A stretch of 64,000 bases of DNA from Candidatus Omnitrophota bacterium (GTDB taxonomy: Bacteria; Omnitrophota; Gorgyraeia; B26-G9; JBDRCZ01), in NCBI GenBank assembly GCA_043821285.1, contig JBDRCZ010000058.1, positions 18,699 to 82,698 of the forward strand. Reading direction: 5' to 3'. The notes below the pieces were generated by a model. The model saw only the letters and a program-made list of their open reading frames with translations. It did not search any database and was not told the DNA's origin. How positions within the stretch are numbered: position 1 is the stretch's first letter; each line of letters begins with the position of its first letter. Shown piece by piece: positions 10,866-53,694 of the stretch. The translations under genes and the position numbers were made by a program.

Positions 10866-10911
10866 ATCTTTTTTATCCATTTAAAAACCTATCGTGTTCA
10901 AGCTTTCCCTC
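10866..10911 (+). repeat. Intergenic mosaic repeat family, copy A (ATCTTTTTTATCCATTTAAAAACC...TTCAAGCTTTCCCTC). The hairpin part is replaced by TGATGCtacGCATCA.
   Basis: Aligns with copies at 20755, 36222, 36651, 38941 and 53624. Confidence 0.6.
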
Positions 10912-10968
10912 AATAATGTCACCCGGTAAACCAGACTATAGGAAATAGGCAAGTTTAACCGTAATGAT

Positions 10969-11577
10969 TTAGTTTTTAATTAACACCCTCCGGCCGGAAA
11001 TCTTCAACTTTCCTTTTACAAACAAGTCAATTGTCTGCGGAAGCAATTGATGTTCTAAAACATGTATTTTTTTGGCAAGTGTTTCTCTGGTGTCATTGTC
11101 TCTTACCTCAACCGGCGACTGTAAAATAATCGGACCGTGGTCCATCTGCTCATCGACAAAATGCACGGTTACCCCGGTAATTTTCGCCCCATCACAGAGT
11201 GCCGCCCCAATGCCGTCTGTACCCTTAAACGCCGGCAGGAGTGCCGGGTGGATATTTATTATCTTATTACGAAACGCACGCACAAAATAAGGACTGATCA
11301 TCCGCATAAACCCGGCAAGCACCACCATGTCAATTTTATGATGCTTAAGCTCTTTGACAACAGACTTATCATAATCAGTGCGGCTTTGATCTAGAGATGC
11401 AGCAATACATACTGCAGGAATGTTATGTTTTTCTGCCCGTTTTAAGACATAGGCATCTTGACGGTCTGAAATAACTAATGCTACTTTTGCCCCTTTGATC
11501 TTTTTACGCTTAACCGCCTGAATAATTGCCGCAAGATTTGAACCAAACCCTGAGGCAAGAACCGCTATTCTTTTCAT
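10969..11577 (-). CDS. purN: Phosphoribosylglycinamide formyltransferase
   Basis: 202 aa. MKRIAVLASGFGSNLAAII ... HPALLPAFKG matches the PurN fold. 4-bp overlap with the upstream gene. Confidence 0.85.
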   Translation of the reverse strand: MKRIAVLASGFGSNLAAIIQAVKRKKIKGAKVALVISDRQDAYVLKRAEKHNIPAVCIAASLDQSRTDYDKSVVKELKHHKIDMVVLAGFMRMISPYFVRAFRNKIINIHPALLPAFKGTDGIGAALCDGAKITGVTVHFVDEQMDHGPIILQSPVEVRDNDTRETLAKKIHVLEHQLLPQTIDLFVKGKLKISGRRVLIKN

Positions 11578-12854
11578 GCCTTTGCGGCCTTTGCCAGACG
11601 CGGCATAATCTCTACGCCTTTAATTGTACCAATACTGCCTGCCTGACAACTCTTTTCCGAAAAGTTTATTATCCCGTCTGATTTAAAACCCGGACCGCAG
11701 ATTAATAACGGCACCGGATCCGCGGAATGTGCCTTGATTAAACAACTGGTCGCATGATCTGCGGTAACACAGATGATTGTCTGATCAAGATTTATTTCCT
11801 TAAGTAAAGGTCTAAAAAAATACCGGTCAATCGCTTCAATTGATTCAAGCTTTTTCTGATAATCGCCGTCATGCGCGGGTTCATCCGGGCCTTTAATATG
11901 AATGTATAGCCCGTCAAATTCAGACTTCGTGGTTATTACCTTTTTTGCCCAGTTAAGGTAATCTTCATCTATTTTTCCGGTCTTTGGCGGAGAGGCAACT
12001 TCCCTCATCCCGGTTAACATCGCAATGCCCTTTTCTACCGGCATCTCGACGAAACAGCCAAAATTTAAATCAAATAATTCTTTCATTGTAGGAAATTTTG
12101 GCAGGTGATCTCCGGCATCACGGGTCAAAATTACATTGGCTATCCGTTTATCTAATGCATCACGTTCACGATTTACGCCGGAATTTTCTAATATTTTTCT
12201 GCTTTTTTTAATAAACTCATTGGTCAAATGTGCCGCATCTTTTGCCGCTTTACTGTGATCAAGCGGCCGGCACTCTAATAATACGTTATCAAATTTTTCC
12301 AGCGCTATGCCAAATACGCCTTTTTTGCCATAAGCCGGATCGGTATTAGAAACATTTGCCGATAAATTTCCCTGCGCACGTAACACGAGCACCCCGCGGT
12401 GGCCAATTGTACTTTTAAACTCAAAACTTGCCCCGGGAATTGATTTAAGCTTTACTTTTGCATTAAGTTCCTCAGCCAGTTCCACAGCTTCCGGTGTAGA
12501 TAAATCCCGGCCAACTCTGCGGTCAAGTATTTCATTACTGCCTTTGCCCAAGGTGGCAAAGTTAACCCTATAGGCTAAATCTCCATCATTAATTTTGAGT
12601 CCCTCGGCATGGGACTCAAGCGGCCCTCGCCCGGTATAATACTTATCTGCATCATATCCAATAATACTAATCACGGCAACATCTGACTCCGGTGCGACTT
12701 TCTCCCCAACCGTATACACACTCCCCAGCTGTCCGCAACTCGCCAAATAATCTAAATCCGGTGTCCTGGCTGCTTCAAGTGGTGTTCTGTTGTCCAGCTC
12801 AGGTATTGAGGAATCCCCTAATCCGTCAAGCACCACGTAAATAATCTTATACAT
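11574..12854 (-). CDS. apgM: Cofactor-independent phosphoglycerate mutase, archaeal type
   Basis: 426 aa, MYKIIYVVLDGLGD N-terminus, alkaline-phosphatase-superfamily metal-ligand pattern. Size and motifs typical of ApgM. Confidence 0.75.
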   Translation of the reverse strand: MYKIIYVVLDGLGDSSIPELDNRTPLEAARTPDLDYLASCGQLGSVYTVGEKVAPESDVAVISIIGYDADKYYTGRGPLESHAEGLKINDGDLAYRVNFATLGKGSNEILDRRVGRDLSTPEAVELAEELNAKVKLKSIPGASFEFKSTIGHRGVLVLRAQGNLSANVSNTDPAYGKKGVFGIALEKFDNVLLECRPLDHSKAAKDAAHLTNEFIKKSRKILENSGVNRERDALDKRIANVILTRDAGDHLPKFPTMKELFDLNFGCFVEMPVEKGIAMLTGMREVASPPKTGKIDEDYLNWAKKVITTKSEFDGLYIHIKGPDEPAHDGDYQKKLESIEAIDRYFFRPLLKEINLDQTIICVTADHATSCLIKAHSADPVPLLICGPGFKSDGIINFSEKSCQAGSIGTIKGVEIMPRLAKAAKA

Positions 12855-17554: not shown

Positions 17555-17770
17555 AGTATCCGCACATTTTTTAAAGCACTCACAGAGTACAAGCACCCAT
17601 AGGGCACAGGCAGCCACAGATTTCTCAGATTAAATTGATTTTATGCTTTTAAATCTTTCTCTCTTTTATCCACCATAGATTTATTCACCACAGATTTGCT
17701 CAGATTTCTGCTCCCCTAAAAATATGGCTCTTTCTCAGAATCTGTGGGTAAAAACAAAGGTTTATAATGG

Positions 17771-17936
17771 GGTGAAACGTTTCGTATATAGGCTATGCGT
17801 CACTTTTTAGCACATCGTAGGCAAAGCCAAGCATCAAATCTCTGCTAACCCAGTAGAACTACGCTAATAAGAATATAACTGGTCGCCAAAATAAACCGAT
17901 AGTCAATATTTAAACAACGTTTTCACCCTAACCTGA
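17771..17936. ncRNA. Candidate structured small RNA. A roughly 165-nt segment is closed by the 13-bp inverted repeat GGGTGAAAACGTT / AACGTTTTCACCC.
   Basis: Long-range inverted repeat seen at 17772-17786 and 17920-17933 inside a 630-bp non-coding gap rich in CACAGATT repeats. Identity is unknown (6S-like closing stem is one possibility). Strand undetermined. Confidence 0.15.
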
Positions 17937-18169
17937 TGAATTTTAACTAGTTCCATATTTTTAAGCAAAAAAACACCCACAGATTCTATTAACGAGGCAA
18001 AAATATTTATAACTATCTGCGTAATATTTGCGTTTCGTCTTTTTTTATCCGTGTTCAATCAGTGAAAATCTGCGGCTTTATCTTTTTCTTTTTTCTCAGG
18101 CTAACTCTCTGCATAATCTGGCTGCTTTTTAGTTTGTTATCATATTTTGACACTACTTCATAACATCTA

Positions 18170-19958: not shown

Positions 19959-19995
19959 GTGCTCTGTCAAATTAATTTTTAATTTGACAGAGCAC
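19959..19995. promoter_or_regulatory. Perfect 37-bp palindrome GTGCTCTGTCAAATTAA-TTT-TTAATTTGACAGAGCAC. It overlaps the stop of the upstream gene and may be an operator or terminator stem.
   Basis: 17-bp arms with a 3-nt centre. Each arm contains the TTTGACAGA half-site that is also found upstream of four start codons. Confidence 0.5.
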
Positions 19996-20656
19996 TACAG
20001 GCACGGATACATATTCCGCAAATATGATATTTTACTCCCGCAAGCTTGGAAAAATTTCTAAGCGTTTGATAGCACTTCTCGTGTTCAAAATCTTCTCTTT
20101 TTTCCCGGATTGCCCCGGCTGGACAGACGTTTATACAACGCCGGCACTGGCCGCAATCCCGGTTTAGCGGGTTATCTCTTTTAAGCGGCAAGTTCGTCAA
20201 TATGGTTACAAATCTAAGCCTGCTGCCAAACTTGGGACTGACAATCAAATTATTCCTTCCCCACCAGCCAATCCCGGCTAAATCAGCCACATGCTTATGC
20301 GAAAGATGCGCCTTTTGCCTTTTCCAGTCCACCAATTGAGATGCGGCAATTGGTAGTGTGGAATAATTACACTCCTTTATATAATGGACTATTCTTAATG
20401 CAATTTGATCCAGTGCAGAATTTAGCTGACGGTAATGCCAGCTATAAATCAGTGTCGGATGGTCCACAATTGTTTCCACGACATCACTGGCAAGTCCCAT
20501 CCCCACACTAATCGCTGAACAATATTTATCTTTTAACCTTTCAATCTCCGGAGAAAACTCTATCCTCTGGCCGGATAACTCTGCAACCCCAAAAACATCC
20601 GCCCCCCAGGCAAGCGCCTTTGTTTTTAGTTTATTATAATTATCTATCTTATCCAT
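19979..20656 (-). CDS. 4Fe-4S cluster protein, QueG/reductive-dehalogenase-like ferredoxin-domain family (product uncertain)
   Basis: CGQCRRCINVCPAGAI plus a second Cys cluster CGICIRAC. 225 aa. Confidence 0.45.
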   Translation of the reverse strand: MDKIDNYNKLKTKALAWGADVFGVAELSGQRIEFSPEIERLKDKYCSAISVGMGLASDVVETIVDHPTLIYSWHYRQLNSALDQIALRIVHYIKECNYSTLPIAASQLVDWKRQKAHLSHKHVADLAGIGWWGRNNLIVSPKFGSRLRFVTILTNLPLKRDNPLNRDCGQCRRCINVCPAGAIREKREDFEHEKCYQTLRNFSKLAGVKYHICGICIRACSALSN

Positions 20657-20754: not shown

Positions 20755-20818
20755 GATAAAAAAATTCCTTCGGACTCTTTTTATCCATTTAAAAACCTCT
20801 CGTATTCAAAACTTCCCT
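20755..20818 (+). repeat. Intergenic mosaic repeat family, copy B
   Basis: AAAAAATTCCTTCGGACTCTTTTTATCCATTTAAAAACCTCTCGTATTCAAAACTTCCCTT. Confidence 0.6.
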
Positions 20819-20958: not shown

Positions 20959-21336
20959 CTATCTAAATTTTGAAAAATACCTGTCTATTTCAGGTCTTAA
21001 TTCTATACCTACTCTCTCAAAGCAGTCTAATAATTCGAGATATGTGCCTATTCCTCCGAGAAAATCCCAAAATTCTTCTGCAACTTTTAATTCATTATCC
21101 AAATCCAGCATTCCTTTCAGTGTCCATCTCTCATAGGGATTTGGTTCATAAGGATTATATGGGATAGAAATATAAGAATGCACATTTGCAGTCGGATGCC
21201 CTGACAAATAAATCGCTATCCACTCTAATAATGTTCTTTTGAAGTCCTTAAAATTACTGACATTAGGCTTGGCTGTCTTTAAATTAAATAGATAAATTGT
21301 CCCATCATTACCTTTGACAAACAAATCAACTTTCAC
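20959..21336 (-). CDS. Candidate Type II restriction endonuclease (small, 125 aa)
   Basis: Lies 5 bp downstream of the MTase on the same strand inside an AT-rich islet. No recognisable family from memory. The call rests on operon context and on possible PD-(D/E)xK-like DLFVKG...E..K residues. Confidence 0.35.
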   Translation of the reverse strand: MKVDLFVKGNDGTIYLFNLKTAKPNVSNFKDFKRTLLEWIAIYLSGHPTANVHSYISIPYNPYEPNPYERWTLKGMLDLDNELKVAEEFWDFLGGIGTYLELLDCFERVGIELRPEIDRYFSKFR

Positions 21337-21341
21337 AGTTT

Positions 21342-22943
21342 TTACTTTAAGTGAAAAATTGTTTCCGCATAAGCCGTATCCCGATCTTTTTCTACCCGAT
21401 TAAGAACCGGACGTTTGAACTGATTAATTATTTTCATGTTGGATAATTCGGCAATTTTAGGATAACGATTAAATTTGTCATTAGCCACTAAAAAAACATC
21501 ATAATCGTTTTGTAAATACTTTTTACAATTTATTAAAACTCCTGCGATACCCTCTAAATATAAATCTCTCGCTTCTTTTCCTTGACCTTTGACTAAGGGG
21601 CCTATTTCCAATTCGTCTTTTCGTTTAAATTCGAACATTTCATAAGCATAAGCGTGTTGTTCATGATAATCTATAAGTCCAACATAAGGCGGGCTTGAAA
21701 AAATTCCTCTTATCTTTTGTCTGGATAATATTTTTGCAAGTTCTGGATTTGCCTTTTTAATCTCTTCGTAAATATCAATGCTTCTACTATCGCCTGTTAG
21801 ACAAATTTGAAAAGTTTCTGTTTTTAATTTATCAAATTCTTTAAGCCGATTTAAGGTGTCAAAAGTATAGGTTTGCCACCAACCGGCAATTGAAAAAATT
21901 GGCTTGCAAATTTTTCCGTGCTTTTTACAGTAATATGTTGTTATTACAGGTTCTTTTAGGGTTGCCAAATCCGCATGAGTGGTTGCTCTACAGGAACGAA
22001 CTGTTCTGCTTAAGATAACCGCTAAAACTTTTTTAATATCTTTTTTAGCTATTGTTGTTTTTAATTCCTTAAACAAAAAATCCATATCTTCTCTTACCGG
22101 ATATAAAAACCATTTATCCAAAAAAGTATCCTTTTTATCTTGTTTAATTTTTATTTGATACTTTTTTACTAAAGTATTGTAGGTGGACAAAAATTCTTTT
22201 GCTTTTTCATTGGCATATTTATTCTCATCAATTTCACCTTTTAAAACTTTTCTCTTATATTCTGGCGATGGGAAATATTTAGCATCGAATTTTGCAAGTT
22301 CTGAAAGGAGGATTTCTTCAAATGAATTATTACTTCTTGTCTTTTGAAAGTCTTTTAGCCGGGAGGTTAGTTTAGCGATGGCTTCTGCAATTAAGAGAAT
22401 ATTGTGCTTTTCAACCTTGACATTAGTAATCATCGCGTTGAAGGAAGAAATATCTATCCCAATAGCATGTATACCCAGTTCATTTGCTTGTACTAAAGTT
22501 GTCCCACTTCCACAAAAGGGGTCTAATACTATATCGTCTTCATGAAAATAAACATCTCTTTTAAACTCGTCCTTATGAGAATCAAGAAAATACTCTACCA
22601 GTTGTGGAATAAACTTTCCTTTATAAGGATGTAATCTATGCACATGCTTTGTCCTTTCTGATTCCTTGTATTCTACAAAAGACAAATGCCAATTAAGGTC
22701 TTTACCTAATATGCTTTTCCACTGTTCTTCCTTTCTAAAAGAATCGTAATAATCCTTTAACTCTTTTATGTTTAATAAAGAATTGCCATTATTACTATAC
22801 TTTCTTATTTTTCCATATTGCACTAGATATGATATGTTTGAAATGGTAACTTTACGATTTAAATATTGAGAAGCCCAAACACTTGCTTCTCTTAAACTAA
22901 AGAGTTTATCATCTTCTTTTCTAAATAATGTTAGCTGCTTCAT
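21342..22943 (-). CDS. Type II DNA methyltransferase (N6-adenine or N4-cytosine amino-MTase)
   Basis: Motif I VLDPFCGSGTT near aa 140, a long target-recognition insert, then motif IV SPPY (GIFSSPPYVGLIDY) near aa 415. Local GC is clearly lower than the flanks. Confidence 0.8.
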   Translation of the reverse strand: MKQLTLFRKEDDKLFSLREASVWASQYLNRKVTISNISYLVQYGKIRKYSNNGNSLLNIKELKDYYDSFRKEEQWKSILGKDLNWHLSFVEYKESERTKHVHRLHPYKGKFIPQLVEYFLDSHKDEFKRDVYFHEDDIVLDPFCGSGTTLVQANELGIHAIGIDISSFNAMITNVKVEKHNILLIAEAIAKLTSRLKDFQKTRSNNSFEEILLSELAKFDAKYFPSPEYKRKVLKGEIDENKYANEKAKEFLSTYNTLVKKYQIKIKQDKKDTFLDKWFLYPVREDMDFLFKELKTTIAKKDIKKVLAVILSRTVRSCRATTHADLATLKEPVITTYYCKKHGKICKPIFSIAGWWQTYTFDTLNRLKEFDKLKTETFQICLTGDSRSIDIYEEIKKANPELAKILSRQKIRGIFSSPPYVGLIDYHEQHAYAYEMFEFKRKDELEIGPLVKGQGKEARDLYLEGIAGVLINCKKYLQNDYDVFLVANDKFNRYPKIAELSNMKIINQFKRPVLNRVEKDRDTAYAETIFHLK

Positions 22944-24003: not shown

Positions 24004-24087
24004 TTCCTCCTTAAATGAGCAGACAATTTACGAAGTGTTAACTTCATAAATTGTAGGACTACGTCCGTCTGCGAATTTAATCCGCCG
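24004..24087 (-). promoter_or_regulatory. Conserved structured 5' leader element, unit 1 (contains the ribosome-binding site of pilZ)
   Basis: Read on the minus strand: AAATTCGCAGACGGACGTAGTCCTACAATTTATGAAGTTAACACTTCGTAAATTGTCTGCTCATTTAAGGAGG. It contains a 14-bp stem ACAATTTAYGAAGT / ACTTCRTAAATTGT with loop GTTAAC, and a GGACgtaGTCC hairpin. Confidence 0.55.
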
Positions 24088-24110
24088 GTTTATTAGGCGG
24101 ATATTAACTA

Positions 24111-24192
24111 TTTCCTTAAATGAGCAGACAATTTACGAAATGTTAACTTCATAAATTGTAGGACTACGTCCGTCTGCGAATTTAATCCGCCG
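24111..24192 (-). promoter_or_regulatory. Conserved structured leader element, unit 2 (tandem copy, 108-bp period)
   Basis: About 95% identical to unit 1. A third copy precedes the HD-GYP gene at 39566. Confidence 0.55.
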
Positions 24193-24353
24193 TTGTATTA
24201 GCGGCAGACTTTGGCAGATCTTCGATTTACCGGGCAAATATTATGTTATTCCACTAACAACAAATATCACTCTTAAATCCATTTTTATCCGTGGGTAATC
24301 CGTGCTTATCCTTGGCCATATTTTATTCTTTTGCCACGGATGAAACGCGGATT

Positions 24354-32487: not shown

Positions 32488-32763
32488 ATCCTAATGAATC
32501 TTCCCCGCAGCAAGCGGCGGGGCATCTTCATACACGGAAAATGTAACCATTTTCCGGTCACCCGCCTAGGCAAACTTTTATCTTTCACAAGGCGCTAGCG
32601 GATCTTCGACAATTTCGCAAAAAACAAAAACATGCTACCCCGCAGAAACTACCGGGAATAATCACGTTTATTTTTAAATTTTTTTCTATCCTCTGCATAC
32701 AACATACGATTCTCTGTATCTGCGATCATCTGTATTTTTACATCTGTGGTCATCTGCGTATCA

Positions 32764-36221: not shown

Positions 36222-36262
36222 ATTTTTTATCCATTTGAAAACCGCAGGTTTTCAAACTTTAA
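36222..36262 (+). repeat. Intergenic mosaic repeat family, copy C (partial; contains the near-perfect inverted repeat TTTGAAAACC-GCA-GGTTTTCAAA)
   Basis: AATTTTTTATCCATTTGAAAACCGCAGGTTTTCAAACTTT. Confidence 0.55.
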
Positions 36263-36397
36263 ATAACCCGCCATACCTTTTGGCGGAGAATTTAATCCCG
36301 TCCTGCGGCAGACAAGCCTGTCCGCCAATTCCACCAAAATACTGGCGGACATTAAGCTTATTCTTTCCCTAAACACTGTCACCCTGCAACAAAACCG

Positions 36398-36650: not shown

Positions 36651-36712
36651 AATAAAAAAATTCCTTCGGAATCTTTTTATCCATTTGAAAACCGTAGGTT
36701 TTTAAACTTTCC
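36651..36712 (+). repeat. Intergenic mosaic repeat family, copy D (full: hairpin AAAAAATTCC-TTC-GGAATCTTTTT, ATCCATTT box, TTTGAAAACC-GTA-GGTTTTTAAA, CTTTCCCTCC)
   Basis: Read directly. Followed by the shared GGGAATAATTAAGTTTAATCC module at about 36745. Confidence 0.65.
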
Positions 36713-36913
36713 CTCCAAAAGATCACCCTCTATCAAGCTATAGGGAATAATTAAGTTTAATCCGCCAGCCCGCCACAACGCTTCGTGCGGGTCTTCTATT
36801 TATGAGGCAGATATTAAACAATACTGTTGTATTTTATAAATATCAGACACGGAGTATATTATTTTACCTTTTATCATTACTTTTATCAACAATTTCTTTG
36901 CAAGTTTATATTT

Positions 36914-37944: not shown

Positions 37945-38232
37945 AATCCCAACCCTCCTTTAAGTTACCGACATCGTGTGGTTTTTCATAATTTCTGTAA
38001 CGATTATCTACGACATAATGAAATTCCAAAATTCAAATGACAAAATCCAAATGAATCCTCAAATATTTTAATCATAAAAGAAAAAAAATAAACCATTGAT
38101 GTTTTTTATTTGCCTGCCCGCCGTGATTTTTGGCGGGTCATTTTTTTGTTAAACGATTCATTTGCTTGTCCGCCAACGCCTTGTGGCGGAACATTTGTCA
38201 TTTCTAATACACGTGCCTCTCTCATCTACCTA

Positions 38233-38940: not shown

Positions 38941-39006
38941 AATAAAAAAATTCCTTCGGGATCTTTTTATCCATTTAAAAACCTACGGTTTTCAAACTTT
39001 CCCTTC
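38941..39006 (+). repeat. Intergenic mosaic repeat family, copy E
   Basis: AAAAAATTCCTTCGGGATCTTTTTATCCATTTAAAAACCTACGGTTTTCAAACTTTCCCTTC. Confidence 0.65.
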
Positions 39007-39565
39007 TAAATCTATCCAGGGAATAAACCCACTGTGAATTACCAAGGAAAATATTTTAACAAAATATAAAAACTAATTCAAGCAAAATCTGCAAATTTTC
39101 CTGTTTTTTTTGCAAAAAATTCATAACCCTTTATTTCATAGATAGTTATATAAAAATTGTCGGTTTACGTGAGTTTTCGTGTTTTAGTTGGTTTTTTGTT
39201 TTTCAACGAAAATTTTTATTTAGACAAAACCAGTTTCCTGATAGTTGATAAATTTATATTATAGAAAAGAATAAAAAGATATTCTTCGTATCTTGCGTAA
39301 CGTATAACTTGAACATTAACGTTATGCAACGTATAATAAAATTTTTTATAAAATATCTTGAAAATTCATAACATATGTGCTATACTTAGATTATTCTATT
39401 TTTTACTACCTTAAAAACAAAAACATGTTACCCTCTATTAAGTTAGCGGGAATAATCAAGTTTAACCTCAAGATGGATAAATTTCCCCGCCATGTTTTTT
39501 GGCGGGTCATCTAAGGATAAGCTTAATATCCCCCCAGTTTTCTAACGAAAACAAGACCGGGGGAT

Positions 39566-41110: not shown

Positions 41111-41129
41111 CAAGCTACAGGATATCTTC
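41096..41129 (+). terminator. Perfect 14-bp stem-loop (GAAGATATCCTGTA-acaagc-TACAGGATATCTTC) spanning the HD-GYP stop codon
   Basis: Read directly. No U-tract follows, so its role as an intrinsic terminator is uncertain. Confidence 0.35.
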
Positions 41130-41317
41130 ATCTACAGAAAAAGATTACATTTTCCCATCATCCGCCAAGGCGGGTGAAAAAACTTTTGTCCTGTAGCAAC
41201 CTACTGGTAATACTATATTTAAAATTCGTGTAGATTTGTGCAATTCGTGGTTAGAGTTTTAGTTTTTTTCTTTTTTAACACCGGCGCAAAGCGTGCCAAG
41301 TTTTTTTTATAATTATT

Positions 41318-42898: not shown

Positions 42899-44327
42899 TG
42901 TTTATGGGTTTTATCATCGGACGAAATCCTAATCTCTCAACCTTGCCCCAACTCTTAACACCTTGCAATTTTTTAAAAAATGCCAGGATCCGCGAAAAAA
43001 TAACAATCTGACGATACCCGAGGTATTCCAATAAAGAAAAGACTAACATTCTTAAAAACACCCATTTGTTTCTGTATGTTTTAAAGACTACTTCTTCGAT
43101 AATAATCGCACAAACTGTCAACAACATTGTTATCCCTGCCGTGGAAAAGAGAAAAATCATCACGAAATTATAATTAATCACTCCTATTAACAATCCGGTA
43201 ATCATCGTTATAACCCCAGCACATTCCATAATCGGCGCAAACATTTCTCCGGCCGCGTAAAAGGGAAATGAAATAAGTCCTACGGCTTTATATCGCGGGT
43301 TAAAAAACATTATCTTGTGTCTTTGAATTGTATCAATCAGCCCGCGATGCCAGCGTTCTCGCTGTTTGACTAATGATGCTATGTTTGGCGGCGCCTCGGT
43401 CCAGGCAATCGGGTCGGAGACAAATATTACACGACAGCGCCGGCCTTTTTCCCGAAGCTTGCGGTGCATGCGCACGGTTAGTTCTATATCTTCGCCTACG
43501 GTATTTATCTCATAACCACCACACGCAACTACCTGGTCCTTTCTAAAGAATCCAAACGCCCCGGAAATAATCAAATCTCCGCCGAATCTATTCCAGCCCA
43601 GCTTACCAAACAAAAATATCCGCAAGTATTCGATTGCCTGAACTGCCGGGAAAATATCTGTGGGAAAACGCGTACGCATTATTTCTCCCTTCTCGATGTT
43701 ACAACCATTGGCAATGCGTATTGTCCCGCATATTGCAGCAGCGTCCTTTTCGGTCAACATCGCCCTGACCAAAGGCTGCAGCGCACCTTTTTCAATAATC
43801 GTATCCGCATCGACCGCTAAAAAATATCGGCTGGCCGCCACACTTATTCCGACATTTAAGGCATCTCCTTTACCGCCGTTTTGTTTATCGATTAAAATCA
43901 GATTCGGATAAATTTTCGAACGATAACTTTCTTTTATCGGCTGGGTTGCCTTAAAATTGTGTTCGGGCAATTGAATTTTTACCATTTGAAACGTGCTTAC
44001 CAGATATGGTAAAGTGGCATCCGCTGAGCCGTCATTTACAACAATTACTTCAAACTTAGGATAAGAAAGATTTAAAACTGCCTGGACGCTGACTATAATA
44101 TTCGCGGCTTCATTATATGCCGGGATAATAATACTTACTGGCGGGCAATCTATAGGATTCAAAACTTGTTTATCATCTTTGCGGCTTTGTTTATATCGGC
44201 AATATAACTGCGGTATTGAAAGCAGCAAGAGCAAAGCATAGAACGAATTAATCGCCAGAAAATAGCCCAATAAAACATTATTTAGCAAATATACTATATC
44301 ACGCATATCGTTTTTTGTTAGGCTCAA
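42870..44327 (-). CDS. Processive family-2 glycosyltransferase (PgaC / IcaA / cellulose-synthase-like)
   Basis: N-terminal transmembrane segment, IIIPAYNE ... VNDGSAD ... DADT ... QRERWHRG (QxxRW), C-terminal transmembrane bundle. Start TTGA-overlaps or lies 18 nt after the RHS gene stop. Confidence 0.75.
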   Translation of the reverse strand: MSLTKNDMRDIVYLLNNVLLGYFLAINSFYALLLLLSIPQLYCRYKQSRKDDKQVLNPIDCPPVSIIIPAYNEAANIIVSVQAVLNLSYPKFEVIVVNDGSADATLPYLVSTFQMVKIQLPEHNFKATQPIKESYRSKIYPNLILIDKQNGGKGDALNVGISVAASRYFLAVDADTIIEKGALQPLVRAMLTEKDAAAICGTIRIANGCNIEKGEIMRTRFPTDIFPAVQAIEYLRIFLFGKLGWNRFGGDLIISGAFGFFRKDQVVACGGYEINTVGEDIELTVRMHRKLREKGRRCRVIFVSDPIAWTEAPPNIASLVKQRERWHRGLIDTIQRHKIMFFNPRYKAVGLISFPFYAAGEMFAPIMECAGVITMITGLLIGVINYNFVMIFLFSTAGITMLLTVCAIIIEEVVFKTYRNKWVFLRMLVFSLLEYLGYRQIVIFSRILAFFKKLQGVKSWGKVERLGFRPMIKPINTTPLLSFRR

Positions 44328-47300
44328 AAGGGAAGTGGTTCAAACATTATTTTATCCACATACACCGCGCCCGCGGACATAGGCGACCATTCAAAAACAA
44401 AAGATATATTTTTCAGGCACCTTAAGTCAACTCCCTGAACCGCAAAATCTCTCAAAGGAATTCTCACCTTTTCCCACTGGGTTGAAGACTTTAAATACTG
44501 CTCTAAGTTTATGTATTTCCGTGTAGTACCATCATCCAGATACACATTAGGGGTTTCGCTCCCGTGAACCCTTTTGAATTTGAAAGAGAGAACCGGATAC
44601 TCACAAACATCAATATTATTCAAATCTACTATCCATCCCGCCCATGATTCTTTATCTCTTGAAGAGAAAATATCCGCATAATGTAAAAGCGAGCCCAATT
44701 GATCATAAAATGCGTTAATCCGGGCATTATTTGTCTTAAATGTCTTACAATCCCGGCCCCAGACATTCCGGCCAGCTCCGTCAGAACAGTTAGCAGCAAT
44801 TAACGGCACCACATCCATTTCAAAAGTAATATCGTCAATAAATATAACGCCGGTACTGTTTTTGAACCGATTTTCCAGGGTAAAATTAATATTCTCCAGA
44901 GAGGAAAAATCTTCTATTGTGCTAAAGCCCGCCAGAGGAATTGAAACCTTTTGCCACTCATTGGTAATGCCCATGGTTAAATAAGAACCAACCAAAATCT
45001 TATCTTCATGTCCATGCTTATCCATTAACCCCACCTGCACAACCGGGTTATCTATTTCACCCTTTATCCAGAAACAAAGAGTTCGATAAGCCGAGAGATC
45101 AATATTACGTAATAGCTTATAGTATCCGGCATAATCATCTTTCTCAGAAACATCGTAAGTCAATTTTAAACATGGCCCGCGTTCCGAATCATGTTCTATG
45201 GCCGTAGATATTTTGCTGTGAAAATCATTTTTCTGAAATAATCCCGCATCCGGGCCAAGGCCATTGGCATACAGGCTATGCTCAAAACCGGCTACCAACA
45301 AGGCGTCTTTTTTTGCCACCGGCTTTTCTGGAGGGTGTTTATCTTTTTCAATTATGAAATTATCAATGTAATACGTTGCTCCTTTCTTATTTTTGCCATA
45401 AACTAATTTCATGTAACCCTGCGCGTCCCAGTCTGCCATAACCATCTCTTGAATAACAAAGTTATCTCTTCCAACAATCGGGGGGTAGTTTTGCAACAGA
45501 GCATAGAGATTAAAACCGGCGGTATGCCATTTATTATCCACGATTACATTTTCAATCTGTCCTATCCGTTCCATATTCAGGCGCTTATATTCTTTTACTG
45601 CATCCGTAAACTCAATCTCATACCATCGCTCATCCATCTTAACGAGAAAATTAATATTTACCTGTTTTGGTATTTTATAGTCAAACCGAACAGTTGGGTA
45701 TTCTTTGGCATTAAACGGGAGGTCAAAGATTGTACTGGCAAAGTTACCGCCATGGTTTTTATTTGTTAACTTCAGGCAATAACCGCTGTCTAAATCTTTC
45801 CTTTGCTCCAATGTTAAATCAGCGCCAACATCACTATTGCGGTTAGTCCACTGTTCTATGCTCTGTTCAAATGTATTGGCAATCAAAAATTTCTCTTTTG
45901 AATTGATGCTTTTCTTCGATAACCCTAACTGATGTGCTGCGGGTTTATCAGCTGCGTATCTTGACCGGGATAGAGCTGTCCCTAAGTTTATGCCTTCAAA
46001 CACGGCAAAATAGGCATTGCCATGCGGCAGTCCGTGTAAATATGCGCAAAGTTCATTTGCCGCTTTATCAAAAAATGCCGGTAAATACTCCCATTGTTTT
46101 GCCTGAGAGTTGAACGCGTAGATTCCTAATTTTTCTGTGCTTAAATCCTTGAAACAATCCTCTGGAAGCTTTATTCCCAAAGTAGCATCTCTGGTAAAGC
46201 TCTCCCCCGCGGGTCTCATCTCATAGACTTTTCCTACAAGAGCACCCTCCTCGGGGAAAGGCAAGGTTTCATCCTCTAAAGGTTTAATTGTAATTATCCG
46301 AAACGGCTCTCTTAACGCGTGTTCCGGCACATCAAGCACAACCATCCCGTCAGTACTTATGGCTTTCCCCCCATAAATATTTGGGATTACCCGGCCAACC
46401 TCAACGGTCACGCGGTCCTCTGCAACAGCACCATGAATATTCGTTACAAGCAGCCGTATTGTATATACCCCCGCTAAATCTATAGGGTGGTCTTGCTGAT
46501 ACTCATCACCATAGGTATAATTTTTTAACCCGGTATCAAAAGTCGCCAGATTACCATAAATTGTCTGGTCGGATGAATCATCCAACATAACCGGAGCAGT
46601 ATCTTTTAGTTGTGGAATAGTAGATGTGGTAATATTCACCCATTCTCTTGGATTATCACCCTGTCCATAGTCTACACGATACTCTCTAAATGCCTCACCA
46701 TAGGCGACGCCGAAGATAGGAACTTTAGCGCGCACAAGTGCGTCCGCAAAAGGCACAGATATTTTTGCAATTAAGCCATTTGTTTTTTGGACAGCTTTAT
46801 GCTGCTGCGGACGTTTTTCTATACATTGAATAAACGTCGGCTCTCCACAAGATACATCTCTGTTTTGATCTATCGTAATATTCGACATAGGTTCATCAAC
46901 CGGTCCTTCATAATAATCCGGTTCAGGAATATTCTGTGCTATTTCCCATACCGCATAGGTCATCACTGTCCAAGACGCAGCAAATATTCCCCCAAAAATG
47001 TCGCCAGAAGCCAAAAATCCGCCCACAAAACTTGCTGCAACGTCATAATAAAATCTGTTTTCATCAAATAATCCACTTGGATCTGTGAAATTAACCGGAT
47101 TATTTTTTACATAACTATAAAAATTCATTCCCCCCTCGAACCCAATTGGATCAGGGGATAAAAACCTTCCGATTGCCGGGCTATAATATCTCGCCCGGTA
47201 ATAATAAAGCCCGGCCTCAGGCTCATATTCTCTTCCCGTAAACAAGTAGGGGTTGCCAATGCTACTTACCTTATTAGGAACGCCATAGGCATCGTAGGAA

Positions 47301-50300
47301 AAGGATTCTACAACATTCTCTGATTTATCTATAATATTAGTCACACTTCCCATTCCATCATAGCAGTAGAAATAATCCGTACCATTTCTTTTCATCACCA
47401 GTATCTCATCTATTCCTCGACCATAAACATAAGTTGCCTGGACCACACCTCTTTTATCCTTCTCCAGAATAACCCTGCTTTGGTCGTGTATATACTCGGT
47501 TATTGCTGCCGGGGTTATCTTAGAGGTTCTTCTTCCTAATGGATCATATACATATTTAATTATCTCCCCCGGCGTATTTACGCGGATGAGCTGATTTTCA
47601 AAATCATAGGCAAAGGTTGTTATTCCGGAAACCGCAGCAACTTCTATAAGGTTGCCATTGTTATCATAGGTATAAACATCCTCATCTATGTTTGTATATT
47701 GATTTAACATGTTTGTGGTGTATGTAGTGGTATCGCCATTTTTTGTTAAGGTGAGCCGGTTGCCAGCCTGATCATGGGTATATTCTGCTAATTCGCCGTC
47801 CGGCGATATTACTTTACTAAGCTGATAAATATTATCATAAACATACTCGGTCAAACCCTCTGGAGTAATCATGGTCAGTCTGTTACCAACAGCGTCATAA
47901 GTATAGGCAAAAGATGAAATAATTTCTGTGTTAGATTTTCTATTGACCAAAAACCCCAGACGTCCAAGAAAATCATAACTAAACTCAGTATAAACATTAT
48001 GTTGCAAATCCTTTCGGATAACCCGGCTCATGGCATCATAAGTATACGCGGCAATGGTTTGGCTTGAAGAATTTATCTGTATAAGTCTATTCACATCATC
48101 ATAAACATATTCCAGTTTTGTTCCATCGGGATAAACAAGCTGCGTGAGGTTTCCGGTTTTATCATAGCGATAACGTATTTTATCTTTTCCCGGACAGGTT
48201 ACCTTACTCAGCCTATTTGCCCGGTCATACTTAAATCTGAGCACACCGTTTCTGCCTTTTATCCTAATTAAATTCCCATAGTTATCATAGCTAAATACAT
48301 CTTTACGGCCATCAGGAAATATTTTTTCTCTGAGCTTACCTCTGGGGGTATAGCAAAATTTAATCTTCTGGCCATTTCTATCTGTCTTTCGCACTAGATT
48401 GCCTGCATCGTCATAGCGGTAACGTTCTCTACTCCCATCCGGATAAATCACGGTAATAAGATTACCATTACTATCATATGCAAAACTTGTTGTATTTCCC
48501 CGAGGGGTAGTAATACTGGATATTTGATTATATTGCGCTTCATAGGTCAACACAGTAACATTCCCCTGAGCGTCAGTTTTGGTTAAAATATTCCCACGGT
48601 TATCATAAGTAAAAAATATCTGGTTGCCATTAGCATCTCTGGTGCTTACTAAATTAGAATTATTATCATAGACACGTTCACTTATATTGCCTAACGTATC
48701 TTCTTTACAAATAATCAATCCATTATTGTTATAGATATAGCGTGTTTGCCTTCCCATGTTATCTGTCACTTTTTTTTCATGGGAAAGTTCACTATATTCG
48801 TAAAAAAGCCGGTTATTGCCTTCTTCATTGCTATATTCTTTAAGACGGCCATCTTCATATATTGTAAAAAACGTCTGCCGGCCGCAGGGATCACTAATCA
48901 GTATAAGATTGTGTTTTTGATCATAGGCATACGTGGTCTTAAATCCGCCAATATCCGTTACCGCGGATAGATTCCCCTCTTGGTCATATTCATACCATAC
49001 CCTTTGCCCAAATGGTCCTTCTATAGATGTAACTCGATTATTTTCATCATAATAAAAAAAAGTTATTTGGCCTGAGGTGTCCGTGATTGTTTTGAGGCGA
49101 TTATCCGGATCATATAAAAAAACTAATGCATTTCCGTTTCGATCTTCTATACGTGTTAATTTGCCTTGGCGGTTAAAATAAAAGACTTTTCCGTATTTTT
49201 CTGTTAACAGATAGGTGCCGTCAGCATTTTTTGTGAGTATTCGAAAATCACCTTTAGAAGACTCATATTCTCCCGGGGCCTTTGGTTTAAAAAAACTGCC
49301 GGTGCCGTTAGCATTAAATATCTCCACCAGCCCATCGGAGGTTTCTACAACATGCATGAGATAAGTATGCGTCCATCCGTATCCCAAGTATTTATCATAA
49401 CCGGAATACAAAGTATAAACCCTTTCTATTTGCACTGAGATACCTTGGGCCGGCATACTAAAGTCTATTTGGCGAACTAATTGTCTATCCGGGGAAGGAT
49501 TTGGCATTAAGGTAATCACTAAAGAACTATCGCGGATTAGCCGGCCATGGAAATCCGTAAGCTCAATATCTACCGTATAATCCTTGCCAGGATTAAGGTC
49601 CGTGGTATCCCATTGATAAAAAACCGGATAATCCATGGTTAAATTTTGCACACCGCTGTCATACCCATGGGAATTAGAGGTTATTCTTATTGAACCGCTG
49701 GTAATATTCGTTAGGTCAAAATTTCCTCTAACTTCAATCTTGATCATTTTACCGGTAGTATATCTATTGCCGGTCCTGGCAAATAAGCGGGCAACCACAT
49801 CTAAAACTATGGGTTCAGAATAAACCAAGGCACGATTATTATAACCATCGGCAACATAGAGCCATGTACCGTCACCATAAACAGAAATTGGCCCAGAAAG
49901 GCTACTAGCGGTAACCCCGTTAAAATTGCCGGCATTTGTGGAAAAATCCAGCTGTCCAAGAACCGCATCCGCGGACTGATTATTCTCCGTGGGGATCTGG
50001 GCATAGAGCAATATTCGATTATTGGCCTGATCCGCAACAAACAAGGATTCTCCGTTGCTATAAACAGCAAACGGCACATAAAAACTACTTGCACTTACAC
50101 CTCCATTATTTATTACATTCGAAGAAAAATTTGGCTGGCCTAAAACTATGTCCGCGGGTTGAAAATTATTCGTAGGAATTTGATTATGAATCAGCACTCT
50201 GTGATTGCCTTGGTCAGCGATATACACACGTATCCCATCACTAAAAACACGGGCCACTCCCCAAAGACTCTGGCTCGTTACCCCGCCGTTATTTGGGAGA

Positions 50301-51016
50301 TTACTGGTAAAATCCGGCTGGCCAAGAACAATATCCGCCTCCGCAAAATTCTCCGTGGGGATGCTATTATAGATTAACACCCGATTATTCGCAGCATCTG
50401 TAACATACAAGCACACTCCGTCGCTATGCACATCAGTAGGTGCTAATAGACTCTGGCTCGTTACCCCGCCGTTATTTGGGAGATTACTGGTAAAATCCGG
50501 CTGGCCAAGAACAATATCTGCCTCCGCAAAATTCTCCGTGGGGATGCTATTATAGATTAAGACTCGATGATTAAAATGGTCCGCAACATACAAACGTTCT
50601 CCGTCACTATATGCGGCCATTGGGCCCCAGAGGCTCTGCGAACTAATATTGCCATTATTGGCAAGATTGCTCGTAAAGTCAGGCTGTCCAATAACAACAT
50701 CCGCCGGCTGATTATTAGTTGCCGGGATATTATTATAGATTAGCACCCGGTTATTAAAATAGTCCGCGACATACAAGTGCACTCCGTCTGTAGAAACAGT
50801 ACCTGGGCGCGACAAGCTACTTGCACTTAACCCTCCATAGTTACTATCATTAGTCGTAAAATCCAACTGTCCCAACACAAGTTGAGCTTCTTGAGGCTCT
50901 TCAAACGCAAAACTTGATAGGGATGGTGGACTAAGGCATACAACAATCCCGGCCACAATACTTGTAAAAATCATCAAAACTTTCATTCCCGCTTCTTTTA
51001 TGCGATGAATATACAT
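44324..51016 (-). CDS. 2230-aa secreted NHL-repeat plus RHS/YD-repeat protein with an approximately 840-aa C-terminal extension (PKD-like and carbohydrate-binding-like domains) after the RHS core
   Basis: Signal peptide. Six NHL-type repeats ([14 protein letters not shown]). Dozens of YD repeats (YxYDxxGNL). RHS core [43 protein letters not shown] at about aa 1350-1390. Then a PKD-like segment [23 protein letters not shown] and repeated jelly-roll-like segments. AAGGAGAG ribosome-binding site 6 nt before the ATG. Confidence 0.85.
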   Translation of the reverse strand: [2230 protein letters not shown]

Positions 51017-51390: not shown

Positions 51391-53391
51391 TTAAAACTTA
51401 CAGGTAAATGTACCAGTTATCCTCCGTCCTACACTCGAAGTATCCATGGGATAATCATCATATCCTTTTTTAAACAGGTTAAACACGGCCAGGGAAACTT
51501 CGGCCGGATTTTCCCAGAGGAAGAATTTATACCCTAAGCGCAGGTTCGTAATAATATATTTCGATGTCTTTCCTCCACCGATTGTTGTGCCGCGCGGGTC
51601 AGGTATGTATCCGCACCAGGTATATGTGGGTGTCCAAAATGTCGAACCGCGGTAAAGTGCACTAATATTTGCGGAAAAACCATTGTCAAAATATGCTCTT
51701 AACTGAGCATTTACCATGTTCTGCGGTGTGCCGGCAACAAGCGCGTATGTATTTGCATCTCCTTCATCCTCCCATTGCTCAAGATTAGTATGGTTAATCA
51801 ACACGCTAAGCCAATTATTAAATAAATAACGCATTTCTATCTCTGTGCCGATTTGTGCCGCATCTGCTATATTTCGATATTCTTCGGTCCAATGAATATA
51901 GGGAGCAGTGGGAATTATAGAAATCGGTGAAACCTTATAATAAATCGGGTCGATTAGTTTTGTATAAAACACATTCGCCTCTACTTGAAAATTGTTCGTC
52001 CAGTCCCCTTTATAACCCAGTTCGAGTGTTTCTACCTGTTCTGGCTTATTGTCTTCATATCCATAAACATCATAGTAAGCTGTAGCCAAATACAAGTAGT
52101 TTTCCATAAAATCAGGGTTACGAAAGGCACTACTGTACGAAAAACGAAAGTGATGCTTTTGCCAAGGAGAATAAAGTAGGGCCAAACGATGAGAAAGACT
52201 ATCACCGGCGTTCGGGTGGTGGTCATATCGCAATCCGGTATTAAGACTAAGGTTATCCTGAAATTTATAGGTATTATCCACAAATATTCCTCTTAAATCA
52301 TGTCTGCGTTTACCACCCACCATCGTAGTATTGATATTATGCGTAGTAAAATTACCTCCCCAAACTAAAATATCTTGCTCCAACAGCTCTAAGGTGTGCT
52401 GAAATTCAATTATTTTCGTCCCCATAGTAATATCTGCAATTGGCACACCAAGAGCATCTGTGCTCATCGCTTGACTACGTAAATAGGCACGTAATATCAT
52501 ATCCGGCTCTTTAGACGCGTAAGTAACTGATGCAAGATAAGCCTCGTCATTTCCTAAATCATAGGGCCCGGCGCCTGGACTAAAAGAATACCACTGCTTT
52601 CGATCAATATAACTTCCAGAAAGGATTATCTCAGAATTATCATCAATCGCCCAGTCAATATTGGCATTTCCCCTTAAGTATCTATTTATGGGATTATTAA
52701 GGTAAGAAACAAAACCATCACTCCAATTGTCTCTATCATCATGGGATAAGGAAATACGATAATTGATTTTATCTTTTACTGAGCCACCATAGAGATAAGT
52801 ACCGATGCGTGTTTCTAGTTCTCCTCCAGTAAGGGAGAGCATACTTCCTTGTGTATCGTTAGGTTTTTTGGTGATAAGATTTACTATGCCAAACATAGCA
52901 TCCGGACCGTACAAAGATGACCCAGGTCCACGTAGTATTTCTATTCTTTCAATTTCTTCTAACGCTATCGGGAGATAATTAAACATGGGCATGGTAGTCA
53001 CTTCATACACCCACGGTATTCCATCAATTAAAAGTATTGCTTTCCGGGGTGGCATTATATTAAATCCCCTGATACCGCCTACTTCCATATTCCCCGCGGT
53101 GGCATATCCCATATGCACCCCAGGAACCATTCTTAATACCTCACCAAGCAGCGTTGCTCCAGATTGTTTAATATCTTCCGCCGTAATAACAGTCATTGCT
53201 GCCGGGGCTTCGGTTATCGCCTGTTCTCTTTTTGCCGCAGTAATTACCGTGGGGATCTCCATAAACAACATTGCCTCAGGAGAAACATACTCTTCAATCT
53301 GTGCCGATACGTTAGGAACTATCGGACTAGATAATAATACTAATATCAGCGATACAATGATAAATAGACTTTTTCTTATAATATTAACCAT
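51391..53391 (-). CDS. TonB-dependent outer-membrane receptor
   Basis: Plug domain (TVITAEDIKQSGATLLGEVLRMVPGV), a 22-strand-barrel-sized body, C-terminal ...TFTCKF ending in Phe. Start moved to MVNIIRK (53391), which has AAGGAGGGGG upstream. Confidence 0.8.
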   Translation of the reverse strand: MVNIIRKSLFIIVSLILVLLSSPIVPNVSAQIEEYVSPEAMLFMEIPTVITAAKREQAITEAPAAMTVITAEDIKQSGATLLGEVLRMVPGVHMGYATAGNMEVGGIRGFNIMPPRKAILLIDGIPWVYEVTTMPMFNYLPIALEEIERIEILRGPGSSLYGPDAMFGIVNLITKKPNDTQGSMLSLTGGELETRIGTYLYGGSVKDKINYRISLSHDDRDNWSDGFVSYLNNPINRYLRGNANIDWAIDDNSEIILSGSYIDRKQWYSFSPGAGPYDLGNDEAYLASVTYASKEPDMILRAYLRSQAMSTDALGVPIADITMGTKIIEFQHTLELLEQDILVWGGNFTTHNINTTMVGGKRRHDLRGIFVDNTYKFQDNLSLNTGLRYDHHPNAGDSLSHRLALLYSPWQKHHFRFSYSSAFRNPDFMENYLYLATAYYDVYGYEDNKPEQVETLELGYKGDWTNNFQVEANVFYTKLIDPIYYKVSPISIIPTAPYIHWTEEYRNIADAAQIGTEIEMRYLFNNWLSVLINHTNLEQWEDEGDANTYALVAGTPQNMVNAQLRAYFDNGFSANISALYRGSTFWTPTYTWCGYIPDPRGTTIGGGKTSKYIITNLRLGYKFFLWENPAEVSLAVFNLFKKGYDDYPMDTSSVGRRITGTFTCKF

Positions 53392-53623
53392 TTCCCCCTC
53401 CTTATTTTTGCGGAGCAAAAAATATAATCCGTCTCGGCAGATGGTCTATTATCCAATTGTCTATTTTCAAAAATCTTCATTCCTCTCTGAATAATCCCAC
53501 GTTGCTTTTCGGTTTTTTATCATCCTTTTTACCTATATTCCTCCCTTTTTTTAGCTTATTAGTTTTCTGATATAATCTTTTTATATTTGATAACATCCTA
53601 CGCTGAAAATCATACAATGTCAA

Positions 53624-53694
53624 ATAAAAAAATTCCTGCGGAATCTTTTTATCCATTTAAAAACCTCTCGTGTTCAAACCTTCCCTATAACAAT
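53624..53694 (+). repeat. Intergenic mosaic repeat family, copy F
   Basis: AAAAAATTCCTGCGGAATCTTTTTATCCATTTAAAAACCTCTCGTGTTCAAACCTTCCCTAT. Confidence 0.65.

Follow-up and report, generated by a model that had tools for sequence, protein, structure and literature searches.

Results and Discussion

The subject of this work is a short repeat that occurs six times in a 64-kb stretch of DNA (64,000 nucleotides of contig JBDRCZ010000058.1, called the window below) from a bacterium of the Omnitrophota, an uncultured and widespread phylum. The window genes that we scanned have housekeeping or envelope functions, and the six copies, named A to F, all lie in intergenic gaps 5' of minus-strand genes, as had been stated in an earlier note on this stretch. 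A repeat search returned them as a 73-nt family with five members and a 37-nt family with six, at positions 10870, 20778, 36224, 36674, 38964 and 53646 and throughout on the plus strand, with the core consensus TTTTTATCCATTTRAAAACC-N4-GTNTTYAA-ctTTCCC of 37–73 nt. A 57-nt hidden Markov model (HMM) of the core found the same six with nhmmer (E = 3e-13 to 4e-16) and no other copy in the 64 kb, confirming the six places given before. Identity of the core within the window ranges from 73 to 95%, and the density is six copies per 64 kb. The hairpin pattern AAAAAATTCC-N3-GGAATCTTTTT is present at four sites of the window (eight strand-matches) against 0.03 expected by chance, and a second module, GGGAATAATCAAGTTTAACC, at three (10941, 36743 and 39448) against 0.02 expected. 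The latter had been described for copies A and D and for places beyond them, which we could reproduce including partial occurrences at 32654 and 39019, and a further shared piece, CAAAAACATGYTACCC, adjoins both copies of the 5' module that stand alone. Thus, the repeats are a real family of small modular hairpin-forming intergenic DNA elements, far beyond what chance would give, and this family is previously undescribed and matches nothing known.

Structure of the element

As all neighbouring genes except two are located on the minus strand, the element is read here on this, the gene-sense, strand. The full unit is a long form of about 175 nt, and in the common short form of about 110 nt the interior of the last hairpin, P3, is gone. 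The unit starts with module 2 (AAACTTGATTATTCCC), hairpin P1, GGGTGAY and GAGGGAAAG, continues with hairpin P2 (TTTGAAAACC-N3-GGTTTTCAAA) and TGGATAAAAAG and ends with stem P3 (ATTCC-GAA-GGAAT), which is lengthened by pairing of an A-run with a T-run, followed by T7-AT. In the long form, found in copy A and at locus L084 of another genome (80.8% identity over 104 nt between the two), P3 is a long A/U-rich stem (ATTCC...GGAAT) whose loop holds about 60–65 nt with two extra hairpins, one of them resembling P1. Among the derivatives, B, F and to some extent E have lost the 5' part, whereas at 32620-32672 and 39413-39467 this part, module 2 with P1, stands by itself.

A contiguous hairpin between A-run and T-run had been claimed for all six copies. 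It is present in four of them (20759, 36655, 38945 and 53627), whereas in copy A its arms are about 65 nt apart and copy C has no hairpin at all. The P2 palindrome is perfect in C, as noted before. D and E depart from it at one position each (A.C and G.U, respectively), and it is degenerate in the other three copies, A, B and F, where the left arm retains 6–7 of 10 Watson-Crick pairs and the right arm together with TGGATAAAA is invariant. The CTTTCCC described behind the palindrome does not follow it in copy C, being displaced to 36363-36369 by an insertion of about 100 nt.

Conservation is strongest in the core, which spans about 40–41 nt from GGGAAAG to GGATAAAAA and shows not a single indel across eight distinct copies (the six of the window and the loci L060 and L084 described below). 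In the same eight copies AGGTTTTYAAATGGATAAAA is invariant and the spacing from GGGAAAG/TTGAAA to GGATAAAA is strictly constant. Three blocks do not vary, AGGGAA, ATGGATAAAA (AUGGAU) and AAGGAATT (AAGGAA), and each of them contains an A(N)GGA motif; the AAGGAA block is similar to a Shine-Dalgarno (SD) sequence and is paired inside P3.

The copies in the window

Copy A is a long form of about 178 nt (10783..10960, minus strand) which occupies nearly all of the 186-nt spacer between purN and the PGM gene, starting 8 nt past the purN stop codon and ending with a T8 that abuts the PGM ATG (10782). The PGM protein has its nearest relatives outside the source genome at 58% identity. Read on the minus strand, the copy consists of module 2 (10950-10960), a P1-type hairpin, GGGTGAC, GAGGGAAAG, a degenerate P2 and TGGATAAAAAAG. 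In the outer stem of P3 positions 10866-10875 pair with 10783-10797 around the two-hairpin insert of about 65 nt (10798-10865), and AAGGA in the 3' arm of P3 is located 9 nt ahead of the PGM ATG.

The archetypal short form is copy D (112 nt, 36652..36763, minus strand), 68 nt 5' of a gene for a 61-aa ferredoxin, with module 2 (36743-36763), P1 (36726-36745), CTTTCCC/GGGAAAG (36707-36713), P2 (36684-36706), TGGAT (36679-36683) and P3 with its A-run, hairpin and T-run (36654-36678). Copies B and F are short forms with a core of subfamily 1. Copy B (20756..20817, minus strand) is composed of GGGAAGTTTTGAATACGAGAGGTTTTTAAATGGATAAAAAG, AGTCC-GAA-GGAAT and T7 with no recognisable module 2 or P1, and is found 100 nt 5' of an Fe-S protein gene (19979..20656, minus strand); copy F (53624..53685, minus strand) lies 205 nt 5' of a gene for a TonB-dependent receptor and keeps a degenerate P1 remnant up to about 53720. 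Copy E (38942..39029, minus strand), also a short form, has its 5' part truncated to GGGTTTATTCCCTGG and is situated in the divergent region between a rhomboid and an HD-GYP gene, its T-run ending 19 nt before the rhomboid ATG (38922).

Copy C (36223..36397, minus strand) starts directly after the ferredoxin stop codon (36398) and has the perfect palindrome (36234-36256) without the P3 hairpin. Its nested insertion of about 100 nt (36261-36362) is made of modules found elsewhere, a CCCGCC..GGCGG hairpin and TAAGCTTAAT; it parts GGGAAAG/CTTTCCC from the core and has AAAG on both flanks. Our covariance model R1 scores this copy with only 29.5 bits and copy D with 124 bits. The 5' module without core or P3 is found on the minus strand at 32620..32672 (AAACGTGATTATTCCC, P1 hairpin and GGGGTAGCATGTTTTTG), between purH and a Mur-ligase-like gene and sense to both, and again at 39413..39467 (AAACTTGATTATTCCC, P1 hairpin and GGGTAACATGTTTTTG), within the presumed 5' untranslated region (UTR) of the plus-strand HD-GYP gene and antisense to that gene.

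Occurrence in other genomes

Two further organisms carry the element, and the identity of the core between the three genomes, which have 40%, 47% and 52% GC, is 93–95%. It is present in two assemblies from Stordalen Mire, that of fen_1318 (WGS prefix PMCS01, contig PMCS01000022.1) and GCA_003154645.1 (prefix PMEA01). The earlier note had named absence elsewhere or identity with a known miniature inverted-repeat transposable element (MITE) derived from an insertion sequence (IS) as outcomes that would count against it, and we found neither. Locus L060/L083 (metagenome-assembled genome fen_1318, 47% GC) was the sole true match among those listed for an 18-mer scan of genome contigs, and a metagenome scan with a degenerate 27-nt pattern gave three matches, one of them (L082) by chance. 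The copy of L060 is a short form which exactly fills the spacer between rplQ and an aminotransferase gene and is antisense to both. This spacer, located at 9884-10004 on L093, is spanned by nine strain contigs from other samples, each of which matches the core HMM at an identical 54.2 bits, and a tenth (L102) ends inside the element; in about 27 kb of this organism, covered by the ten strain-level contigs, no second copy was found. Separately, it has three extra genes between rpoA and rplQ (L093 5967-9182), encoding proteins of 116 aa and 537 aa and a 253-aa ankyrin-repeat protein, and these two genes are adjacent in the relatives L087 to L090.

The second locus, L084/L103 (52% GC), has the long form in sense orientation between a cobalamin riboswitch with terminator and uppP-exbB-exbD-btuF, and 6 nt separate the end of its T-run from the uppP ATG. 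The riboswitch (RF00174, 67 bits, 3393-3664 on the minus strand) lies upstream of this operon-like group of genes. Of the eight loci, seven have the orientation of the gene downstream. The L060 copy is antisense, as is the solo module at 39413, so the orientation to genes is not fixed; the T-run is followed by a start codon after 0 nt in A, 6 nt in L084 and 19 nt in E.

In six other Omnitrophota with the same gene surroundings (160 kb fetched, about 120 kb of it non-redundant) neither the HMM nor covariance model R1 detected a copy. In L085, L086 and L091 no gap is left between the purN stop and the PGM start, which overlap or abut, compared with the 186-nt spacer holding copy A in the window, and the rplQ-aminotransferase spacers of L087, L089 and L090 contain unrelated sequence instead of the element. 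The copies are thus inserted into short intergenic or intra-operon spacers, and their distribution among genomes is patchy. Because purN and the PGM gene overlap or abut and the rplQ spacer is unrelated in these copy-free relatives, the element is, as judged from the spacers compared, an insertion and not an ancestral regulatory region.

Nature of the element

We favor the view that the element is a modular non-autonomous dispersed repeat of the type of bacterial interspersed mosaic elements (BIME), BOX or ERIC, co-transcribed with its neighbours and ending in a weak leaky terminator-like hairpin, and we give this view about an even chance. It is preferred because the family is mosaic, with solo modules and one nested insertion, because relatives have empty sites and the distribution is patchy, and because the element is in two cases antisense to genes. 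Further support comes from the hairpins, as P1 keeps its pairing with different stem sequences (CUAU/AUAG, CUGC/GCAG, UGCG/CGUA and GUAG/CUGC) and the sense strand folds better, from the read-through that closely following gene starts require, and from the lack of a consistent open reading frame and of matches in Rfam and in plasmid, phage and viral collections. The copies would have spread by insertion at the DNA level, catalysed in trans by an enzyme encoded outside the window, which might recognise the hairpins on one single strand. They would then be co-transcribed with the neighbouring genes, and the terminal hairpin with its U-tract may act as a weak and leaky bidirectional terminator or as a stabiliser of RNA ends, not as a full stop.

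Several points weigh against this view. In the scope tested, searches for a mobilising enzyme, for terminal inverted repeats, for a target duplication and for a target common to the flanks gave nothing, and eight distinct loci make the boundaries of the element and the statistics on its orientation weak. The core identity between genomes is at least as high as that within the window and comes with zero indels despite the differing GC contents; neutral selfish copies would not stay so alike unless a co-transferred enzyme keeps the same master. The A(N)GGA motif in all three invariant blocks hints at an RNA function at the level of the host, seven of the eight loci are sense and near a downstream start codon, and co-transcription is presumed from the sequence.

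The earlier note had offered an element like a MITE or a repetitive extragenic palindrome (REP) as one possibility. Its general part, a dispersed mosaic intergenic repeat, stands, given the empty sites, the patchiness, one nested insertion and the occurrence of long, short and solo forms, co-transcription being presumed as in REP/BIME; the two specific identities found no support. P1, P2 and P3 have no common GTAG head as the 5' end of REP palindromes has and are not inverted pairs of one palindrome, and no RAYT gene was seen with Pfam among the window genes scanned. A classical IS-derived MITE with terminal inverted repeats and target-site duplications would agree with the size of 110–180 nt, the intergenic multicopy occurrence and the empty sites in relatives. 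However, when the first 40 nt of A, D, L084 and L060 were locally aligned with the reverse complement of the last 40 nt, the scores were 5–7, inside the range of shuffled controls (means 5.1–6.7, maxima 9–13), and the flanks of these four share no direct repeat; AAAG on both sides occurs only at the nested insertion within copy C. Pfam models for transposase, integrase and HUH families had no match among the scanned window genes, the 2230-aa open reading frame (ORF) and several small ORFs being left out, and searches of plasmid and phage collections (blastn) and of viral contigs (pattern scans) gave nothing relevant and zero matches, respectively. As both terminal inverted repeats and target duplications are missing, we reject the MITE and regard it as extremely improbable.

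The last hairpin is important for two other proposals. P3 has two G-C pairs only, a U7 tract on the sense strand and an extended stem of −7.9 to −11.7 kcal/mol, and it was not called by the intrinsic-terminator scan, which requires at least three G-C pairs. A combined terminator and operator cassette, also raised in the earlier note, is supported in so far as the A-run, GC clamp and T-run are in the style of an apparent terminator of L085. Against it, the hairpin has just these two G-C pairs, and the palindrome is degenerate in half of the copies. Termination cannot be efficient because gene starts lie 0–19 nt downstream in three loci; read-through of P3 is required for the same reason and also because copy A is within an operon that is contiguous in relatives and L084 follows a riboswitch.

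It could also be that the copies are transcript-end modules releasing a trans-acting small RNA (sRNA) of 60–110 nt, made of P2, an A/U-rich linker, P3 and a U-tail in the manner of sibling sRNAs and derived either from the 3' UTR or terminator of the upstream unit or from a short primary transcript. The sense strand has indeed the layout of an sRNA 3' end, with a hairpin, an A/U-rich single strand and a U7-tailed hairpin; A and C begin 0–8 nt past an upstream stop codon, the core is conserved across genomes and P3 resembles the apparent terminator of L085. We nevertheless consider this quite improbable, as six copies per 64 kb are far denser than known families of sibling sRNAs, promoters do not occur at a conserved position, B, E and F either vary in their 5' part or have lost it, copy C has no terminator and three downstream genes need read-through. 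The weakness of P3, which the terminator scan missed, and the L060 organism, where the element is antisense to both neighbours, speak in the same direction.

The constant spacing within the core is in favor of a DNA promoter/operator cassette, in which the gene downstream would be driven from TTGAAA-N18-GATAAA and a dimeric regulator would use the 10-3-10 palindrome as its operator. The element does stand upstream of genes, a palindromic operator works both ways and could accommodate L060, and several neighbours are related to iron (TonB-dependent receptor, ExbBD-BtuF, ferredoxin and Fe-S protein). The proposed −10 hexamer, however, is without the T that is conserved at its sixth position. It is not listed by the sigma-70 scan, which asked for −35 and −10 hexamers at 16–18 nt spacing and, in the −10, for A in second and T in sixth place. 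The scan does list sites adjoining D, E and F, with canonical TTGAYA-17-TAAAAT sites beside D (36889->36861, upstream) and E (39081->39053), the latter of which would make the rhomboid 5' UTR begin with the element, and a promoter-like TTGACA-17-TAGGAT directly downstream of F (53623->53595). A transcript from the proposed start would have the P3 hairpin and U7 at its 5' end, and in L084 the riboswitch would be bypassed. In A, B and F the palindrome has a degenerate left arm, and what is kept is the right arm with TGGATAAAA. A promoter/operator cassette is therefore very improbable in our view.

A rather unlikely explanation is a cis-acting RNA leader or attenuator with P1, P2 and P3 formed on the sense strand, in which a factor binding the A(N)GGA motifs sets the read-through of P3 or the access to the SD-like AAGGA or both; candidates for this factor would be a CsrA-like GGA-binding protein, an antiterminator or the 30S subunit. 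The sense orientation of seven of the eight loci, the T-runs 0–19 nt before a start codon in A, E and L084 and the AAGGA of copy A 9 nt before the PGM ATG are in favor of it, as are the three invariant blocks, the 41 nt free of indels in eight copies and the 93–95% identity between distant genomes. The sense strand also folds better, P3 having −11.7 kcal/mol compared with −6.6 on the opposite strand and P2 and P3 together 11 G.U pairs compared with 3 on the antisense strand. Promoter-like sites are located upstream of D and E, and the copy of L084 stands in tandem behind a riboswitch. On the other hand, the downstream genes are functionally heterogeneous (PGM, Fe-S protein, TPR protein, ferredoxin, rhomboid, TonB-dependent receptor and UppP), relatives without the element retain the same genes, and the L060 copy, antisense to both neighbours, is unchanged in all nine contigs that span the spacer. 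The better promoter-like site of copy F is downstream of the element, none of the 23 pairs of P2 and P3 has a compensatory double change, and no binding factor was identified.

A further reading would be a horizontally mobile regulatory RNA cassette, a transposable 5' leader or attenuator whose A(N)GGA motifs and P3-sequestered AAGGA are bound by a conserved host factor (CsrA-like or the ribosome), so that each insertion would plug the downstream gene into a global post-transcriptional circuit. This would explain why the core stays 93–95% identical across genomes of 40–52% GC despite non-orthologous insertion sites, although we judge it improbable.

Further identities were tried and rejected. 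A small protein gene has no consistent frame, as the open frames of D and E on the plus strand differ and most copies on the minus strand have stops or no start upstream of a shared ...RFSNG* reading; because the frames are inconsistent between copies, this reading was given up. For an integron attC, where R''(RYYYAAC)...R'(GTTRRRY) sites are expected at the two ends, direct reading of the sequence gave a single GTTTAAC in module 2 with no partner at the opposite end, and the neighbours are housekeeping genes and not cassettes. Judged by eye, TTATCCATT fits the DnaA box consensus in 7 of 9 positions with the CA positions wrong, and parS, Fur/Zur boxes and sigma-28, sigma-54 and ECF promoters have the wrong spacing or miss key bases. 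Weak matches of the covariance model (L085 16104-16260, window 41090-41210 and L093 11208-11236) are generic A-run/hairpin/T-run terminators and not members of the family. Rfam 15 had no match at the gathering score in the whole window, and at E ≤ 5 only noise (at most 23 bits, E at least 0.16) was obtained around C, D and E and for the long form of L084. In a full-text literature search we found no non-coding elements described for Omnitrophota.

As a family that inserts within operons and directly before start codons and is near-identical in distant genomes, the element could serve as a marker for horizontal exchange, and it is a candidate substrate for a mobilising enzyme. Should the RNA leader be true, regulatory wiring would have been spread by a mobile element; should it be merely a selfish repeat, the finding would be an ordinary one in a new phylum. 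In annotation, copies could be mistaken for terminators, promoters or small ORFs.

Further features of the window and its relatives

Two other repeats are found in the window. A 65-nt module (32493-32556 and 36145-36207, 77% identical) contains a CGGAAAAUG...UUUUCCG hairpin, a CCCCGCCG..CGGGG hairpin and AGAUUCAUU and lies directly 5' of the Mur-ligase-like and TPR genes, each time after a piece of the main repeat. A GC-rich hairpin CCCGCC-N7-GGCGGG (family D14) occurs three times, at 36267-36291 in the nested insertion of copy C, at 38117-38141 and at 39486-39510, and two of these were called as plus-strand terminators amid minus-strand genes.

Heptamer-like repeat arrays, direct and inverted, are present in spacers of the window (17560-18100, 24280-24340, 34880-35060 and 53930-54020) and of the relatives L087 (9870-10000), L089 (9845-10000) and L090 (9865-10000). 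Position (e.g. after rplQ) and symmetric layout are the same and the word is species-specific, being ATCTGTG/ATCCGTG/CACAGAT in the window, CGCGAAT/ATTCGCG in L087, CACAGAT/ATCTGTG in L089 and CACGAAT/ATTCGTG in L090, which suggests a fast-co-evolving DNA-binding factor. Over-representation of the heptamers by k-mer counts was swamped by coding bias. Repeat family D7 (18040, 24280 and 34952) is part of these arrays and shares TTGAACACG...GGATAAAAA with the core of subfamily 1.

A conserved Y-shaped structured leader of about 90 nt with the pattern GCAGAC-[GGAC GUA GUCC]-[ACAAUUUAYGAAGU UAAC ACUUCGUAAAUUGU]-CUGC was seen at 24008-24096 and 24113-24201 (minus strand) and at 39556-39636 (plus strand), directly before an SD sequence and start codon. 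The two tandem copies precede a PilZ-domain gene and the single one an HD-GYP/GAF/HAMP gene, both being types of cyclic di-GMP (c-di-GMP) signalling genes. Rfam gave no match at the gathering score and a weak similarity to freshwater-2 RNA (23.9 bits, threshold 49.9). It is a possible new c-di-GMP-related riboswitch or leader.

Among the genes, an ORF of more than 3032 codons (1-9094, minus strand) extends beyond the window on the left. About 950 residues into the protein lies an AAA_2 (Cdc48-type) ATPase domain, and it appears to be one of the giant proteins of Omnitrophota. The 2230-aa ORF (44324-51016, minus strand) contains 183-nt (61-aa) repeats at 49899-50793 that are 66–90% identical, three in tandem and a fourth one unit away. 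Three large secreted-type proteins follow in a row on the minus strand: a CBM6/CBM35/F5_F8 glycoside-hydrolase-like protein (54075-57311), a subtilase S8 with FG-GAP, TIG and dockerin domains (57446-61438) and a peptidase C25 with TIG and dockerin (61608-63926). C-terminal segments of about 300 nt are 73–74% identical between the two proteases, and dockerin in Omnitrophota is notable. A 125-aa ORF (20959-21336, minus strand), with copy B just downstream, adjoins an N6/N4 DNA methylase gene (21342-22943, minus strand). Its match to the TdeIII restriction endonuclease model is confined to the C-terminal half (133-242 of 242); it is probably a truncated restriction gene.

Comparison with known systems

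The family is similar to BIME/REP of Enterobacteria, which are short hairpin-forming intergenic mosaics of few modules located between co-transcribed genes or at operon ends at about one per 10 kb. BIME/REP are co-transcribed, and their hairpins modulate the stability of mRNA 3' ends and termination. In contrast, there is no sequence similarity, and no 20–40-nt GTAG palindrome, REPIN pairs or RAYT were seen here; the Omnitrophota unit is also longer (110–175 nt) and has a core conserved across very different GC contents, unlike REP sequences, which are specific to a species. A modular build of 100–200 nt, a variable interior and the lack of a known transposase are shared with BOX of Streptococcus pneumoniae (boxA-boxB-boxC) and ERIC/IRU, and with BOX also the lack of classical terminal inverted repeats and target duplications. 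These known elements are found close to the starts of genes, form a stable RNA fold on co-transcription and can influence how neighbours are expressed. Sequence and phylum are unrelated, and the end with A-run, hairpin and T-run as well as the strong orientation to a single strand in the window belong only to the Omnitrophota family.

Correia elements (CREE/NEMIS) of Neisseria are comparable in size (about 100–150 nt), density (about one per 10 kb), closeness to gene starts and co-transcription, and they can terminate transcription or carry expression signals. They differ by their 26-bp terminal inverted repeats and TA duplication, neither of which is present in the Omnitrophota element. Bidirectional intrinsic terminators resemble P3 with its A-run, short stem-loop and T-run, readable on either strand and in the style of the apparent bidirectional terminator of L085 (AAAAAATCCCC-ATAA-GGGGATTTTTT), but P3, with its two G-C pairs uncalled by the scan, is merely the last module of a larger conserved unit.

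Finally, palindrome-associated transposable elements (PATE) of the IS200/IS605 group, which are substrates of HUH/Y1 enzymes, likewise have neither terminal inverted repeats nor target duplications. In the long form, two hairpins that resemble each other lie subterminally and in direct orientation (P1 and the inner P3 hairpin of P1 type), folding and the tolerance of G.T/G.U pairs favor one strand, and the window copies are uniformly oriented on one replichore. The differences are that no TnpA, TnpB or RAYT gene and no conserved tetranucleotide target at the ends were found, and that the L060 copy is oppositely oriented relative to its ribosomal-protein genes. By this analogy, the element is reminiscent of substrates of HUH/Y1 single-strand transposases, which might provide a lead for its mode of spread.

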